From NCBI GenBank assembly GCA_965261285.1, contig OZ253457.1, positions 2,089,396 through 2,153,395 on the forward strand: a DNA stretch of 64,000 nucleotides. Reading direction: 5' to 3'. The DNA comes from Vicinamibacterales bacterium. Its GTDB lineage: Bacteria; Acidobacteriota; Vicinamibacteria; Vicinamibacterales; UBA8438. The position numbers were made by a program, and so were the translations under genes. Each line of letters begins with the position of its first letter. The stretch's first letter is position 1. Of the stretch, positions 3,304-9,217 are shown in pieces. Below the pieces are notes generated by a model that ran no database searches, was not told the origin of the DNA, and saw only the letters and a list, made by a program, of their open reading frames with translations.

Positions 3304-4137
3304 ATGGCCGACACGCATAATCCTCACGGCCGGCTTGAACCGCTCGAAGGGGAGCGTTGTGCGGAGGAGGACGAACTCCAGGCCCTCTGGAGAGCCGGAC
3401 ATGCGCGGCGCACCATCGCCTGCACCTTCGTCGTGGCTCTCGCCGCTCTGCTGATGCAGTGTGCACCCGGGCCGCCTTTGCTCACGCATCTGCCGGCCGG
3501 GCAGACCAGCGTATTCAAGGACTGTGCCGATTGCCCGGAGATGGTCGCCCTGCCCGAGGCCGACGTGGCCCTAGGCCGGTTCGAGGTGACCGTCGAGGAG
3601 TGGAGGGCCTTCGCCGAGGCGGTACCGGATGCCGCCAAAGCGCGTTGCACGCGTCGGACTCGGCGGGTTCGTGACTGGCAGCACACCGGGTACATTCAGA
3701 CCGCGCGGCATCCGGTCGCGTGCGTGAGCTGGCACGAAGCGCAGGCGTACGCGGAGTGGCTGTCGTTGGAGACGGGCCACCAGTACCGTCTGCCGACCGA
3801 CGCGGAGTGGAGCCGAGGCGCAGCCGGAAGCGGCAAGGGCTGCTCCACGGATGGGGGCACCGATGGCACTGACCGCGGAACGTGCGTGGTCGGCTTCTTT
3901 TCAGCCCCGACGGAAGCCGGTCTCTACGACATGGAGGGCAATGTCGCGGAGTGGACGGACAGTTGCTGGGGCATGGGCTGCAGACGAAAGGTGGTACGCG
4001 GCACTTCGTGGTGGAACCCTGGCGGGGCTAGCGGTGGAATGTGGCGGCGGGACGAGCGCCGGGATGCGCGACGGGGACTGTTCCCGACTACGGGAACGAA
4101 TCGGCTTGGCTTCCGTGTCGCCAGGACTCTTCCATGA
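3304..4137 (+). CDS. Secreted/lipoprotein FGE-sulfatase (SUMF1/DUF323) domain protein
   Basis: Motifs HPVACVSWHEAQAYAEWLS, YRLPTDAEWS, GLYDMEGNVAEWT, RGTSWW and a terminal LGFRVARTL. The N-terminal hydrophobic segment ends in LLMQC. Confidence 0.8.
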   Translation: MADTHNPHGRLEPLEGERCAEEDELQALWRAGHARRTIACTFVVALAALLMQCAPGPPLLTHLPAGQTSVFKDCADCPEMVALPEADVALGRFEVTVEEWRAFAEAVPDAAKARCTRRTRRVRDWQHTGYIQTARHPVACVSWHEAQAYAEWLSLETGHQYRLPTDAEWSRGAAGSGKGCSTDGGTDGTDRGTCVVGFFSAPTEAGLYDMEGNVAEWTDSCWGMGCRRKVVRGTSWWNPGGASGGMWRRDERRDARRGLFPTTGTNRLGFRVARTLP

Positions 4138-6271
4138 CTCCCTGCGGCGCAGACTCCTGAACCGTGGTTCGTGGAACCGTTCTTGCGCGTTCGCGGCGCT
4201 GGTGGCTGCCGCGTTCTGGGGAACGTTCACTGTCGACGCGGGTGCGCAGGACGGCACCGTGTTGGATCGGACGGCGCTGGAAGCGCTGTACGACGCGACC
4301 GGCGGCGAAGGCTGGACTGACAGCACGAACTGGAAGACGGCAGCGGCGCTGGACACCTGGTTCGGCGTGACGACCGACGACGCCGGCCGGGTCACGGAGC
4401 TGGCGCTCGGCCAAAACGGGCTGACGGGCTCCCTGCCGCCCGCGCTGGGAAGCCTGGCGAGCCTCGAGCGGCTGTCCCTCCGGGGGAACGAGCTGACCGG
4501 CCCCATCCCCGGCGAGCTGGGGAACCTGGCGAACCTGGAGAGCTTGACCCTCTCGAGGAACGGGTTCAGCGGCCCCATCCCGGGCGAGTTGAGAACGCTC
4601 GCGCGACTGGAGCGGCTGTCGCTCTGGGGGAACGAGTTGACCGGTCCGGTGCCGGCGTGGCTGGGGAACCTGACCCGCCTCCAACGGCTGGACCTCTGCT
4701 GCAATGCCCTGGCCGGCCGGGTCCCCGGCAGCCTGGGAAGCCTGCCTGACCTCGAGCTGCTGGACGTGTCCTACAACTGGGGCCTGTCGGGGCCGCTCCC
4801 GCCCGAGCTGCGGCACACGAGTCTCGACGAGATGGACGTCTTCGCCACCCCGGTGTGCGCGCCCGCCGCCTGGGAGGACTGGCTGGAGACCATCGTGTTC
4901 TACGGACGACTGTGCGAGACGGCGAGGGACGTCACGATCGACCTGGCGGTCGTCTATACGCCGGCCGTGCGTGCGGTGTCCGACAACATCGAAGCGGTGA
5001 TCGACCTGATGGTCCTTGAGACCAACCAGGCCCTTCGAGCGAGCGGGGTGCCGCACCGCATCGCCTTGGTGGGGAGGTCGGAGGTGCAGTACGCCGAGTC
5101 GGGCGACACCCGCGACGATCTGCTCCGGCTCGCGAATCCTTCGGACGGCTACATGGACGAGGTGCACGCTCTGCGCGACCGGGTCGGGGCGGACCTCGTG
5201 CACCTGATCGTCCACGAGCTGGAACCCGAGTCCTGCGGCAGGGCCCTTCTCCGGGGTCCGTTCAGCGTCACCCAGCGTTTCTGCGCGGGCAGGATCTTCG
5301 CGCATGAGCTCGGGCACAACCTGGGGCTGCTGCACGACAGGTACCAAAGGCTCCACCACGAGATCGGGCCGTACCCGCATCCCGCGCACGGCTACGTGAA
5401 CCCGCAGGGGCTCGCGCAGGACCGTTCGCCGGCCAGGCGCTGGCGTACGATCATGTCCTACTCGACGCAGTGCGACTACTACTTCTTCTCCTGTCGACAG
5501 TTGCTTCGCTTCTCGAATCCGCGCCAGACCTTGAACGACGACCCGATGGGCGTCGCCTACGGCGCCGGCGGCTCCGGACTGACCGGACCGGCCGACGCGG
5601 CGTCCGTCCTCGTCCACACCGGCCCGGCCGTGGCCCGGTGGCGGAAGCGTCCGTCCCTCGACACCAATCGGCCGCCCGCCCTGGTGGGAACGCTGCCGGA
5701 TCGGTCATTGCCGGCGCCCCCCGCCATGCTGACGCTGGACGTTGCGCGGGCGTTCGCGGACCCCGACGGCGATGCGCTGACCCTCACCGTTTCGTCGTCG
5801 GCGCCCGACGTGGCGACGGTGGGTCTGACTGGCGCGCGCTTGACGCTCACCTCGGTGGGGGCGGGCACGACGACGATCGGGGTGACCGCGACCGACCCGG
5901 GCGGTCTGAGCGCCGCCGCCTCCTTCACCGCGACGGTGGGGAGGCCGGGGACCTTCACCGACGACCCGATCCGGCCCGGATCGACGCCGGTCAGGGCCAT
6001 CCACTTCGCGGAGTTGCGGACGCGCATCGACGCCCTGCGAAGAAGGGCGTCTCTGACGCCGTTCGCCTGGACGGATCCCGTTCTCACCGTTGGCGCGACG
6101 CCGGTCAGGCTGGCGCATCTGCGCGAGCTCCGTGAGGCGCTCGCTGGCGCGTACGTAGCGGCGGGGCGGGGGGCGCCGGCCTGGACCGACACCGTGCCGA
6201 CGGCGGGGACGACCCTGATCAGGGCGACCCACCTGAATGAGCTGCGGGCCGCGGTGACCGCGCTGGAGTAA
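4134..6271 (+). CDS. Plant-type LRR + reprolysin-like (M12B-like) zinc metalloprotease + Ig-like domain protein; start region disrupted or unresolved
   Basis: LRRNT-like cap (LEALYDATGGEGWTDSTNWKT...WFGVTTDDAGRVTEL), then 24-aa repeats L..L.L..N.L(T/S)GPIP.ELG.L, then HELGHNLGLLHD. The C-terminus has a triple motif (TPVRAIHFAELR / TPVRLAHLRELR / TLIRATHLNELR). The long frame has no ATG near the signal peptide; ATG 4134 is one base out of frame (see findings). Confidence 0.75.
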
Positions 6272-6379
6272 AAAAGCTGTCCGTTCTTGACACGGCCTGA
6301 TCAGCCGCAGCAGAAATGCACTCATGGGGACGGTTGCGGCTGAATGAATGAGCGGCAACGGCGTTCGCGCTGCTGCTGA

Positions 6380-7857: not shown

Positions 7858-7873
7858 AACCGGACTGTCGAAC

Positions 7874-9217
7874 GTGGAGCAGGACAACATGAACAACTCG
7901 AGGGATCGACAATCGTCTCCACACAGCCGCTCTCGGCCGTCGCGGCGCCCGAGACGTTGGAGAGGCGTCAGGATCGGCTTGCTGGCGATCGCCGGCGTCG
8001 TCGTCCTGGGTGACGAGGCCCGCGCTCAGGTGGGGGTGGAGTCGGATCGAGAGGTGCTCGAGGCGTTCTACGACGCAACCGGCGGGTCCCACTGGTTCTT
8101 CAGCACCAACTGGCTGAGCGACGAGCCGCTCTCGGCGTGGTACGGCGTCACCACGAACGAGGAGGGTCGCGTAGCACAACTGGTCCTGCGGTCGAACAAC
8201 TTGAGCGGGTCGATCCCGCCCGAACTGCCGCGCTTGACCAGACTCAGGCACCTGTCGCTCGAGCAGAACCAGTTGAGCGGGCCGATCCCGCCCGAACTCG
8301 GCCAGTTGACCAGCCTCGTCAACCTGCAACTCCACAGGAACCAGTTGAGCGGGCCGATCCTGCCCGAACTCGGCCAGTTGACCAGCCTCGTCAACCTGAA
8401 TCTCTTCGAGAACCAGCTGAGCGGGCCGATCCCGCCCGAGCTGGGTCAGTTGTCCAGCCTCGTGAACCTGTCGCTCCACGACAACCAGTTGACCGGGCCG
8501 ATCCCGCCCGAGCTGCTGCGGTTGACCAGACTCCAGTGGTTGAGTCTCTCCTCCAACGAGTTGAGCGGGCCGATCCTGCCCGAACTCGGCCAGTTGACCA
8601 ACCTCGAATTGCTGCAGCTCGGCTGGAACCAGTTGAGCGGGCCGATCCCACCGGAGCTGGGCCGGTTGACAGGACTCCGGGTTCACCTGGATCTGGCGGG
8701 CAACCGGTTGACGGGGCCGATCCCGCCCGAACTGGGCCGGTTGACGAGCCTCGAACGCCTGTCTCTGCAGAACAGCCAGTTGAGCGGGCCGATCCCGTCC
8801 GAACTGGGCCGGTTGACCAGGCTCATCTCGTTGTCGCTCAGCGGGAACCAGTTGAGCGGACCGATCCCGCCCGAGCTGGGGCGGTTGACCAACCTCGAGA
8901 GACTGCAGCTCCACCGCAACCAGTTGACCGGGCCGATTCCGGTCGAGCTCGGAAACCTCACGGAACTGATCTTCCTGAGAGTCGACGGCGACACCGGGCT
9001 CTGTCTGCCGCCGGAGATACAGGACACGGTGTTCGGACGACTCACCGTCGTCGACAACAACGTGCCCCTCTGCGCCGCCGTGACGGCAGTGCCGCCGGCG
9101 GCGTTGTGGGTGTTGGCGCTCGCCTTCGTCGTGCTCGGGTTGCGCCAGGCCCGGGGGGCGTGGCCCCCGGGCCTCGGCATACCTGTGGGTGGTCCTCCGA
9201 AAATGCCGGCGAGCTAG
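7874..9217 (+). CDS. Plant-type leucine-rich repeat protein with C-terminal hydrophobic anchor
   Basis: Cap LEAFYDATGGSHWFFSTNWLSDEPLSAWYGVTTNEEGRVAQL, followed by ~14 regular 24-aa repeats (L.L..NQLSGPIPPELG.LT.L). The C-terminal hydrophobic stretch ALWVLALAFVVLGL is followed by RQAR. Confidence 0.8.
   Translation: MEQDNMNNSRDRQSSPHSRSRPSRRPRRWRGVRIGLLAIAGVVVLGDEARAQVGVESDREVLEAFYDATGGSHWFFSTNWLSDEPLSAWYGVTTNEEGRVAQLVLRSNNLSGSIPPELPRLTRLRHLSLEQNQLSGPIPPELGQLTSLVNLQLHRNQLSGPILPELGQLTSLVNLNLFENQLSGPIPPELGQLSSLVNLSLHDNQLTGPIPPELLRLTRLQWLSLSSNELSGPILPELGQLTNLELLQLGWNQLSGPIPPELGRLTGLRVHLDLAGNRLTGPIPPELGRLTSLERLSLQNSQLSGPIPSELGRLTRLISLSLSGNQLSGPIPPELGRLTNLERLQLHRNQLTGPIPVELGNLTELIFLRVDGDTGLCLPPEIQDTVFGRLTVVDNNVPLCAAVTAVPPAALWVLALAFVVLGLRQARGAWPPGLGIPVGGPPKMPAS

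Follow-up and report, generated by a model that had tools for sequence, protein, structure and literature searches.

The chromosome of a sponge- or coral-associated member of the Vicinamibacterales (Acidobacteriota) carries, between two insertion sequences, genes for an FGE-like protein, an LRR-fused zinc protease (LRR-M12), a second zinc protease with a Big_2 domain and an LRR-only protein. The question raised by this locus is whether these genes form a functional unit, arrived together on a mobile element, or simply share a chromosomal region. An earlier note on the DNA had read them as two paralogous FGE-LRR-protease cassettes on an acquired island. In the window (the whole stretch analysed, 64,000 nucleotides) we find one copy from a very large and so far unstudied family, in which secreted zinc proteases are fused to plant-receptor-like LRRs, together with a second protease/LRR gene pair. 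The best overall explanation, to which a probability of about 0.6 is assigned, is an ordinary chromosomal region, scarred by rearrangement, that encodes exported 'eukaryotic-like' LRR proteins and metzincin proteases acting at the cell surface. The FGE-like gene and both neighbouring insertion sequences look incidental, and look like parts of neither a functional cassette nor an acquired island. Coordinates of the features are given in Table 1.

Table 1. Features of the locus, in window coordinates.
Feature	Position	Strand	Remarks
IS1634-family insertion sequence	1095-3183	-	transposase 1206-3056(-)
IS1634 terminal inverted repeats I1	~1093-1110 and 3166-3183		
FGE-fold (PvdO/pFGE-like) exported protein	3304-4137	+	PF03781, E 1.9e-28
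40-nt direct repeat, copy 1	4103-4142	+	last 10 FGE codons, stop, 5 nt beyond
LRR-M12 protease gene	4115-6271	+	frame open from 3851; GTG 4115 as candidate start
Dispersed-repeat-element fragment	4143-4190	+	right edge 4190/4191 is the 330-nt deletion junction
LRR-M12, N-terminal signal peptide	ahead of the cap	+	basic + hydrophobic + AxA segment
LRR-M12, helical cap	~4262-4390	+	
LRR-M12, six PS-type LRRs	~4385-4840	+	24-residue register
LRR-M12, reprolysin-type catalytic domain	~4940-5644	+	HELGHNLGLLHD at 5303-5338
LRR-M12, Big_9 Ig domain	~5729-5932	+	Pfam, sub-threshold
LRR-M12, unnamed C-terminal domain	5942-6268	+	
40-nt direct repeat, copy 2	6723-6762	+	AGGA Shine-Dalgarno-like box and GTG start 6754 of Big_2 metzincin
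Big_2 + orphan metzincin, probable lipoprotein	6754-7857	+	GTG start 6754
Big_2 domain	6946-7143	+	Pfam, E 2.2e-12
HEIGHALGFYH zinc motif	7618-7650	+	followed by DIMH Met-turn
LRR-only protein	7889-9217	+	signal peptide, cap as in LRR-M12, LRRs, C-terminal anchor
LRR-only, 11 full + 1 partial PS-type LRRs	8165-8959	+	
LRR-only, C-terminal hydrophobic anchor	9095-9154	+	
IS91-type element	9155-12083	+	NCBIfam transpos_IS91, 322 bits
Tyrosine recombinase (upstream part of IS91-type element)	9338-10303	+	overall span with transposase 9338-11776
IS91 transposase, frameshifted	10313 to ~11100, other frame to 11522	+	Y2_Tnp profile split over two frames

Genomic setting and recent rearrangements

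A search of sequencing runs recovered the window's DNA from datasets labelled as sponge, coral or marine metagenome, and the names of MAGs with LRR-M12 loci (APA_, RHO_, COS_bin) match sponge species in PMC8163846. Short-read contigs from an independent run are identical to the window across 3154-4301 and 5941-8319, which rules out assembly artefacts at the junctions. Two relatives, L001 and L003 (94-96% nucleotide identity), hold the same genes, in L001 at the same chromosomal place, adjoining aldehyde dehydrogenase/BMC genes.

Both insertion sequences named in the earlier note are present (IS1634 transposase: NCBIfam transpos_IS1634, 293 bits). By read depth each is multi-copy (~6x the flanks), both are absent from L001 and L003, and the insertions are recent and strain-specific. 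The LRR-only proteins of the relatives end in '...LWVLALALVVLGLRRRGMERQRAA*', homology of the window protein to them stops near 9150, and its last ~20 codons are sequence of the inserted IS91-type element; since the insertion cuts the 3' end of the gene, the element arrived after it.

A further rearrangement lies at 4190/4191, where L001 and L003 carry ~330 extra nucleotides, including 'ATGGTACGAATC', that the window strain lacks. This deletion created the present 5' end of the M12 frame and took the gene's native ATG and promoter-proximal region; an ~80-nt stretch of L001 spanning the deletion point recurs in both orientations in four other loci (L022, L056, L062, L067). The in-frame GTG 4115, which has no clear Shine-Dalgarno box, would restore a plausible signal peptide. 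Because the native ATG and upstream sequence are lost and the frame depends on this candidate start, the M12 copy in the window may not be expressed or may have been disabled recently. Metatranscriptome contigs of a related strain are 97-99% identical to 3900-4142, 4886-5166 and 5814-6081, with DNA carry-over possible. The deletion, the 40-nt repeat described below and the two insertion sequences are the record of recent rearrangements and not of a mobile cassette.

The LRR proteins and their metzincins

The LRR-M12 gene encodes, as had been proposed, a single polypeptide with cap, 24-residue LRRs (five, plus one partial), reprolysin-type protease and Ig-like domain. LRR_8/LRR_1/LRR_4 and Reprolysin_4/5/3 all score above their Pfam cut-offs, Big_9 falls just below its own (23.0 vs 23.6 bits), and the cap is not recognized by Pfam LRRNT_2. 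The AF2 model has a mean pLDDT of 85, and H397, E398, H401, H407, D408 and M447 are invariant across the family. More than 700 homologues were found, most with LRR and M12 parts and named 'M12 family metallo-peptidase' by NCBI, and 554 loci were confirmed in species-representative genomes, nearly all from Vicinamibacterales/Acidobacteriota. Among the best 80 of these 554 loci, individual chromosomes carry 6-8 copies; LRR counts vary among the paralogues and the protease core is conserved. The window gene is one of the many paralogues in this much-expanded family.

The Ig domain is followed by a conserved domain of 107 residues that the first reading had overlooked. The prediction gives it three helices with an extended segment ahead of each, and it is confidently folded in the model; searches of Pfam, NCBIfam and the PDB gave no match, and no partner machinery was identified. 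Its partner domains are all of extracellular types (Big_9, PKD, cadherin-like, He_PIG, subtilase, FG-GAP). The module occurs in ~5,000 protein clusters.

The Big_2 protein with the HEIGHALGFYH motif was correctly described in the earlier note and is a probable lipoprotein, judged by an invariant lipobox cysteine in 'LALLxAGC' (C31); H289, E290, H293, H299 and M307 are likewise invariant. Of the peptidase families only Peptidase_M10 clears its Pfam cut-off, by a narrow margin (25.1 vs 24 bits) and over a stretch of 26 residues, and the family profile matched astacin (E 1.2e-6), hatching enzymes, MMPs and fragilysin in the PDB. The two proteases differ in metzincin type, as had been suggested: a reprolysin 'HD' signature in one, an astacin/MMP-like orphan in the other. 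They align only across the HExxH stretch (E 0.002) and share nothing beyond the zinc motif, so that, of the proposed paralogy between the two protein sets, only the LRR parts (46% identity over cap and repeats) are retained.

The LRR-only gene, separated by 31 nt from the Big_2 metzincin gene, does encode a free-standing LRR protein, with fewer repeats than the ~14 first counted; in its orthologues RRR comes directly after the hydrophobic helix at the C-terminus. The two genes are a two-gene version of the LRR-metzincin idea, the fused version of which comprises hundreds of proteins. Similar adjacent pairs occur in L083, L084 and L085, in the last of these twice in tandem.

The plant-type character of the LRRs was upheld. 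Their 24-residue pattern, LxxLxLxxNxL(s/t)GxIPxxLGxL, belongs to the plant-specific class as defined in PMC2946307, and every one of the best PDB sequence hits is a plant LRR receptor kinase (GSO1, E 2e-144; FLS2, MIK2, PEPR1). The modelled cap and LRR block superposes on SERK1/2 ectodomains with TM 0.81-0.85 on the target at 38-40% identity.

Function and alternative readings

The FGE-like ORF contains the FGE-sulfatase domain first reported for it, and in the PDB it matches PvdO (4e-19) and SUMF2/pFGE (2.9e-12) best. The aligned C-terminal segment has no cysteine and hence no catalytic pair; the protein is PvdO/pFGE-like and incompetent in FGE catalysis. The N-terminus is hydrophobic; as the 'LLMQC' box is non-canonical, the label 'lipoprotein' is unsupported. 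The junction shared by the supposed cassettes is a genuine direct repeat (36/40 identical, with a 25-nt core found twice in the window vs 0 expected). In front of the second protease, however, the claimed decayed FGE tail amounts to this repeat alone, 6272-6722 bearing no resemblance to FGE at DNA or protein level, and the stop-overlap-start at the first copy does not start M12, the ATGA frame closing after 8 codons.

It has been supposed that FGE-like enzyme, LRR module and metzincin constitute a three-part cassette (maturation enzyme, sensor-effector), duplicated in tandem and diverged. The FGE-like gene does directly precede LRR-M12 here and in L003, where it is intact, and the 40-nt copy of its 3' end fronts the second protease and also precedes a paralogous Big_2 metzincin in L083. 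The recurrent neighbourhood expected of such a cassette was, however, not found: a survey, run with an iterated profile as well, of 80 LRR-M12 loci from other genomes (the best of 554) plus two contigs from a close relative placed FGE-like ORFs only at the orthologous locus (L001/L002/L003) and in L021, i.e. near 1 of 77 loci outside the orthologous one, and the 16 Big_2-metzincin loci had none nearby. With the catalytic pair missing, two thirds of the FGE gene lost from L001 (which keeps its tail and M12), a repeat-element remnant and 330 nt between FGE and M12 in the relatives, and proteases that are not paralogues, a cassette is very improbable, and the FGE-like gene is probably an incidental neighbour. 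It is just as hard to credit that the genes are cargo of an island or composite transposon, acquired horizontally, with IS1634 and IS91 as its boundaries. Insertion sequences on both sides, a slightly lower G+C content of 0.64-0.71 between 3 and 9 kb vs ~0.72-0.75 in the right flank, and Tn3, resolvase and integrase fragments adjoining the paralogous pair in L083 speak for it; yet the two elements are of different families with no ends in common, the relatives hold the genes without either, IS91 cuts into the 3' end of the LRR-only gene and so came later than the gene, and the LRR-M12 family, with hundreds of paralogues, is endogenous to the clade.

The preferred reading, that of exported surface proteases, draws on the observed architecture, family size, synteny, rearrangements and habitat; how the proteins are exported, their retention at the surface, and their ligand and substrate are predictions. 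The basic, hydrophobic and AxA segments at the N-termini of the LRR proteins point to export, and three different parts would keep the proteins at or near the cell surface: the C-terminal module in LRR-M12, a lipid anchor in the Big_2 metzincin and the C-terminal helix in the LRR-only protein. The LRR solenoid would bind a protein ligand, and the attached or adjacent metzincin would cleave that ligand or its neighbours. By analogy and habitat, the LRR-metzincins are probably surface-retained proteases targeted by a eukaryote-like LRR to host proteins, the likeliest targets being those of the sponge mesohyl matrix or host-cell surfaces, and may help the bacterium to feed and/or to escape recognition by the host. 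Sponge MAGs yielded no classical collagenases (PMC8163846). A more general role as nutritional exoproteases, with LRR, Ig and C-terminal domains merely tethering them to particles or surfaces and no specific host target or mimicry, is doubtful. Heterotrophs commonly secrete multi-domain metzincins that carry binding modules, the biofilm protease Mep72 is the closest named bacterial model, the C-terminal module is common to subtilases and many adhesin-type architectures, and the sponge matrix is thought to feed symbionts (PMC5845141); against this, the large number of paralogues, which differ in LRR count but keep the protease core, suggests diversifying recognition and the LRR class is otherwise typical of eukaryotic receptors, neither point being decisive. 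It is unlikely that the locus is decaying in the window strain towards pseudogenes, although the M12 start is gone, the C-terminus of the LRR-only protein is replaced, the IS91 transposase is frameshifted, L001 has its LRR-only gene split into several ORFs, and the Big_2 metzincin was deleted independently in relatives (L003 retains just the last 38 codons). The three window ORFs run to full length and keep all catalytic and structural invariants, the hydrophobic anchor is retained, and GTG 4115 offers a candidate start.

Comparison with known systems

The FGE-like protein shares its fold family with PvdO and SUMF2/pFGE, its best solved relatives, and like them lacks the copper-binding cysteine pair of true FGEs; it is not a PvdO orthologue, as it scores 84 against a 500-bit cut-off, and no pyoverdine genes were seen near it. 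With adamalysin/reprolysin (MEROPS M12B), LRR-M12 shares the HExxHxxGxxHD zinc site, the invariant Met-turn and the Reprolysin_3/4/5 matches; it differs in lacking a cysteine-switch propeptide and disintegrin domain, the LRR replacing the prodomain, and in adding the Ig domain and unnamed module. The match to Mep72, a bacterial metzincin, is weak (63 vs a 645-bit NCBIfam cut-off, over the catalytic domain). The Big_2 metzincin resembles astacins and matrixins in its HExxHxxGxxH motif and a Met-turn a few residues on, whereas the similarity is confined to ~50 residues around the zinc site and the protein, a probable lipoprotein, carries an N-terminal Big_2 domain. Astacins have Glu after the third His, where the Big_2 metzincin has Thr.

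Like T9SS CTD, PEP-CTERM and LPXTG tags, the 107-residue module sits at the very C-terminal end of thousands of extracellular proteins that are otherwise unrelated, but it is predicted to be helical and neither a beta-sandwich nor a short TM tag. The LRR parts share 24-residue repeats and a helical N-terminal cap ending in W.GV with SERK1/2, PRK6, FLS2, MIK2 and GSO1, and their predicted fold superposes on the whole SERK ectodomains; unlike the plant proteins, they are bacterial, have no cysteine pairs in the cap and no transmembrane kinase, and either belong to a protease polypeptide or stand alone with an anchor at the C-terminus. Among bacterial proteins with plant-like LRRs, the Xanthomonas type III effectors XopAC/AvrAC, XopAE and XopL gave the best NCBIfam matches of both LRR blocks (E 1e-16 to 1e-28), with scores far below cut-offs; the window proteins have predicted Sec signal peptides, no T3SS features and different partners. 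No paper describing an LRR-metzincin architecture was found in the literature searched. A further parallel is with the eukaryotic-like proteins of sponge symbionts, which, LRR proteins included, are enriched and expressed there (PMC5845141); the ELR-rich lineages include Acidobacteriota (PMC8163846). Those proteins (ankyrin, TPR, LRR) are mostly treated as stand-alone binding proteins, whereas here the LRR is joined, covalently or operonically, to a metzincin.

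Layout and recent history of the region

The window has an overall G+C content of about 0.72. The domains named in the earlier note were recovered in the open reading frames (ORFs) between 1.1 and 12.1 kb, and that observation was largely correct as regards the domains, whereas the arrangement proposed with them, duplicated FGE/LRR/protease cassettes on an acquired island, was not upheld.

Features of the region that spans the two insertion sequences (IS), with positions in the window
Feature	Position	Remarks
IS1634-family element	1095-3183	transposase 1206-3056 on the minus strand
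ORF with FGE-sulfatase fold	3304-4137	
40-nt direct repeat, two copies	4103-4142; 6723-6762	36/40 identical
Long ORF with LRR, Reprolysin_3/4/5 and Big_9 matches (LRR-M12 protein)	ends at 6271	
C-terminal module of the LRR-M12 protein	5942-6268	residues 612-718 (107 residues)
ORF with Big_2 and HEIGHALGFYH (Big_2 metzincin)	6754-7857	
LRR-only ORF	7889-9217	
IS91-type element	9155-12083	
Tyrosine recombinase	9338-10303	upstream of the IS91 transposase; rides with the IS91 element
IS91 transposase, frameshifted	10313-11776	two reading frames, switch near 11100

The stretches 3154-4301 and 5941-8319 are letter-identical in short-read contigs of an independent run, and the unusual junctions are therefore genuine. 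Regarding the split IS91 transposase, positions 1-116 of the Y2_Tnp profile match in one frame and positions 116-181 in the other. A promoter and terminator scan of 3100-9400 yielded counts at or below the shuffled expectation.

The history of the locus was read from a comparison with the orthologous loci L001 (94-96% nucleotide identity) and L003 of close relatives. Both the IS1634 and the IS91 element are absent from L001 and L003, which hold the cargo genes without them, L001 at the same chromosomal site, and the two elements belong to different families; these findings argue against the acquired island or composite transposon that had been suggested. Short-read depth of both elements was several-fold above that of the single-copy flanks in sequencing runs X1, X3 and X4 (about 6x for IS1634 in X1), which indicates that both are multi-copy in the genome or in the community. 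Synteny with L001 stops left of position 928, just left of the IS1634 insertion; window 1-927 has no counterpart in L001, and the ORFs tried there gave no Pfam match. The left flank of L001 carries genes for a ComM-like Mg-chelatase, polyphosphate kinase and Ppx. The right flank (12086-18600) was placed by synteny with L001 11566-18091. It encodes an aldehyde dehydrogenase of 628 residues, whose C-terminal extension is long and rich in Pro and Ala, as well as a BMC-domain shell protein and a set resembling a type II secretion system or type IV pilus (T2SSF, T2SSE/MshEN, PilM).

At approximately 9146-9217 the LRR-only gene has exchanged its final ~20 codons for sequence of the IS91 element. The native tail in the relatives ends in VLGLRRRGMERQRAA (RRRGMERQRAA before the stop codon), the tail in the window in QARGAWPPGLGIPVGGPPKMPAS, and the hydrophobic anchor was kept. 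L001 is without 6436-7830 and L003 without 6521-7742; since L003 retains the last 38 codons of the Big_2 metzincin gene, which are conserved family-wide, this gene was part of the ancestral locus, and the relatives have deleted it. The stretch 6670-8725, which runs from the 40-nt repeat through the Big_2 metzincin gene into the first part of the LRR-only gene, has a paralogous copy elsewhere in the genome of L001 (89% identity). This second pair copy (L083 5151-8032) directly follows gene remnants (phage-type integrase, resolvase and Tn3 (DUF4158) transposase), a context which suggests that the pair was moved by mobile elements.

A 330-nt deletion at 4190/4191 is private to the window in comparison with L001, L003 and others, and it took the native ATG of the M12 gene together with the upstream region; the proteins of the relatives start with MVRIAALVAAA. 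On its left side the deletion begins within a dispersed repeat element (window 4143-4190). The ~80-nt repeat between the FGE-like and M12 genes (L001 7642-7723) recurs in both orientations in four other LRR-M12 loci (L022, L056, L062 and L067) and resembles one end of a small element of the dispersed-repeat or MITE-like kind. The M12 frame is open upstream of the deletion, with a candidate GTG start at 4115, within the 3' end of the FGE-like gene, which could plausibly provide the M12 protein with a putative signal peptide. The overlap of stop and start codons that had been described for the first cassette is consequently not a conserved operon junction.

The FGE-like gene and the two proteases

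The FGE-like protein matches PF03781 with an E-value of 1.9e-28 (100 bits, against a cut-off of 23.3 bits). True FGEs, both SUMF1 and the bacterial enzymes, carry a catalytic copper-binding Cys pair in the C-terminal segment that follows an RGGS-like motif; the FGE-like protein has zero Cys from after VVRGTSW to its end (WNPGGASGGMWRRDERRDARRGLFPTTGTNRLGFRVARTLP), where the true enzymes hold this pair. Its best alignments and closest solved relatives were PvdO and pFGE/SUMF2, which likewise are without the Cys pair. Its description as a lipoprotein was not supported, as the box ALLMQC has Gln at -1 and departs from the canonical lipobox [LVI][ASTVI][GAS]C.

The supposed decayed FGE tail in front of the second protease shrank to the 40-nt direct repeat alone, the 25-nt core of which occurs twice (0 occurrences expected); blastn-short, tblastn and local alignment detected no resemblance to FGE, at the DNA or protein level, in 6272-6722. 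FGE-like ORFs were surveyed with phmmer on the six-frame ORFs of 82 LRR-M12 loci and then with an iterated HMM on all 98 loci. They were found only at the orthologous loci L001, L002 and L003 (intact in L003, tail only in L001 and L002) and once, at a distance, in another LRR-M12 locus (L021), with none in the 16 Big_2-metzincin loci. For FGE, a recurrent neighbourhood with LRR and protease genes was thus not found in the 98-locus survey, an outcome that the earlier note had itself named as refuting its reading. The link between LRR and metzincin does recur, as a fusion, in hundreds of proteins. The adjacent pair of Big_2 metzincin followed by LRR-only gene is present in the closest relatives (L083, L084 and L085), and no such pairing was seen among homologues at <=65% identity. 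In L085 3642-8348, from another Vicinamibacterales genome, the pair is tandemly duplicated (protease, LRR, protease, LRR). The apparent cassette between two IS elements arose as a side effect of recent insertions and deletions together with the 40-nt duplication, which is a caution for genome annotation.

Regarding the proposed paralogy of the two cassettes, the cap and LRR parts of the LRR-M12 and LRR-only proteins share 46% identity and bear it out, whereas the two proteases align across the zinc motif only and do not. The zinc site of the LRR-M12 protein (HExxHxxGxxH followed by Asp) reads HELGHNLGLLHD; H397, E398, H401, H407 and D408 are invariant in 77 homologues, as is the Met-turn M447 (WRTIM) downstream of the site, and the family also has invariant cysteines. 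The protein matches Reprolysin_4 (40.7 bits, cut-off 22), Reprolysin_5 (38.2, cut-off 27) and Reprolysin_3 (27.5, cut-off 22.4), and the Asp after the third zinc His is the signature of the adamalysin/reprolysin type (M12B); the M12B propeptide profile did not match it.

The family of the Big_2 metzincin comprises ~160 detected proteins, which share an invariant lipobox-like Cys, the Big_2 domain, HEIGHALGFYHT with DIMH after it, and conservation at the C-terminus. The lipobox-like stretch reads LALLDTGC in the window and LALLxAGC family-wide, with a variable -3 position; the invariant Cys stands at the residue that would carry the acyl group in a lipoprotein. Searched against the PDB, the family profile matched astacin (1.2e-6), hatching enzymes, MMPs and fragilysin at the zinc site only, and the protein was treated as a putative orphan metzincin.

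Plant-type LRRs and the C-terminal module

Repeats of the plant-specific (PS) LRR class have 23-25 residues and the consensus LxxLxLxxNxL(t/s)GxIPxxLGxLxx (PMC2946307). Both LRR proteins fit this class in repeat length and consensus, as had been proposed, with a spacing of 24 residues, one spacing of 25, and repeats such as TRLRHLSLEQNQLSGPIPPELGQL. The register gives 5 full and 1 partial repeats in the LRR-M12 protein and 11 full and 1 partial in the LRR-only protein, the latter instead of the approximately 14 counted before. The best PDB sequence matches, and closest solved relatives, were plant receptor-kinase ectodomains (GSO1 at 2e-144, then FLS2, MIK2 and PEPR1), several alignments extending into the N-terminal cap; the first bacterial chain, Leptospira LIC11098, ranked far below. 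The AF2 model of the LRR-M12 protein has a mean pLDDT of 85, and its whole-protein Foldseek matches were dominated by the LRR. The modelled cap and LRR superpose on whole SERK1/2 and PRK6 ectodomains at 28-40% identity, with a TM on the target of 0.80-0.85 (0.81-0.85 in Foldseek for SERK1/2 alone). Pfam LRRNT_2 (PF08263) gave no match at E <= 0.01 with the whole proteins or at E <= 10 with the isolated caps, and the resemblance of the modelled cap to the plant LRR N-terminal cap is structural and positional only. A word-indexed search for taxonomic spread with a 70-residue LRR cap query returned 10 short fragments.

The domain list of the earlier note leaves out the C-terminal 107 residues of the fused protein, which form a conserved domain. 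This module consists of three internal repeats, each an extended segment plus a helix (G-TPVRA-H--ELR--I-AL), and modelled alone with AF2 it reached pLDDT 82 and pTM 0.79. Even at E <= 10 it matched nothing in Pfam or NCBIfam, and the PDB gave no fold match (best Foldseek E-value 3.5). In BFVD it gave only weak matches below significance (TM 0.5-0.64, E 0.016-0.6), to uncharacterised archaeal rudivirus and tailed-phage proteins; a motif similar to its xHxxELRxxI presumably also occurs in phage fibre proteins. With phmmer the module was detected in 4,964 representative clusters (E <= 1e-3), 2,591 of them at E <= 1e-10, nearly always at the extreme C-terminus of host proteins of 145-2,615 residues. 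Partner domains in 42 scanned module proteins were Big_9, LRR, He_PIG, reprolysin, PKD, cadherin-like, Big_2, subtilase, Calx-beta and FG-GAP. Such a distribution is that of a sorting, anchoring or oligomerisation tag, possibly an unnamed one, and the module may point to an export or anchoring pathway that is widespread.

The LRR-only orthologues end in a hydrophobic helix with an Arg cluster (ALPPATLWVLALALVVLGLRRRGMERQRAA in L003), a tail which was treated, from its sequence, as a putative generic C-terminal anchor. Its reading as a PEP-CTERM/exosortase substrate was rejected, as no PEP-CTERM model in NCBIfam matched at E <= 10.

Distribution, host association and possible role

The protease half of the LRR-M12 protein has more than 700 homologues, most of them with LRR and M12 (and Big_9), and the few that are named are annotated as 'M12 family metallo-peptidase'. 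Relatives occupy 554 loci in one-genome-per-species collections; the best 80 of these are almost all from Vicinamibacterales/Acidobacteriota metagenome-assembled genomes (MAGs), and within them single chromosomes carry 6-8 copies. The paralogues vary in LRR number on a protease core that stays conserved. The family is large, catalogued and unstudied, and no paper describing the LRR-metzincin architecture was found in the literature searched. Sequencing runs with the labels sponge, coral and marine metagenome contain DNA of the window, and the MAG name prefixes APA, RHO and COS fit sponge species of PMC8163846. Metatranscriptome contigs match segments of the FGE tail and of the M12 gene at 97-99% identity, a weak indication that these are expressed in a sister strain.

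The N-termini of the LRR-M12, Big_2 metzincin and LRR-only proteins have the basic, hydrophobic and small-residue segments typical of export signals. All three proteins would be exported and retained at the cell surface, where the LRR solenoid may capture a protein ligand that the fused or neighbouring metzincin could then cleave. The most likely targets would be host matrix or surface proteins, as suggested by the habitat, the enrichment of LRR-type eukaryotic-like proteins in sponge symbionts and the expansion of paralogues. In the fullest form of this reading, the LRR-M12 proteins would be a host-directed, diversifying protease arsenal of sponge and coral symbionts, the plant-receptor-like LRR of each paralogue being specific for its own matrix or surface protein of the host, and the C-terminal module would be an unnamed sorting or surface-attachment system that serves extracellular proteins. 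Both parts together are given a probability of roughly three in ten.

The main rival is a purely nutritional role of the proteases. Partial decay of the locus in the window strain is a real possibility as well: the M12 gene has lost its native start and the LRR-only gene its native end, and all catalytic residues of both proteases are intact. If the arsenal exists, it could account for the 'missing' breakdown of matrix proteins, or for immune editing, in sponge microbiomes; no classical collagenases were found in a survey of sponge MAGs (PMC8163846). If the LRRs select host proteins for cleavage, the locus offers a testable mechanism for matrix feeding, matrix remodelling or escape from recognition.

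Eukaryote-like repeat proteins abound in the symbionts of sponges and corals. The locus presents one concrete design, a plant-receptor-like LRR ectodomain combined with a zinc protease in several copies per genome in one symbiont lineage. LRR proteins are well documented among the eukaryotic-like proteins of sponge symbionts (PMC5845141; PMC8163846), and the LRR part of the observation is therefore correct without being new in kind. The PS-type LRRs of the window, in a bacterium found in sponges, belong with these proteins by their repeat domains, and the locus is a new architectural variant of them, in combination with secreted metzincins.
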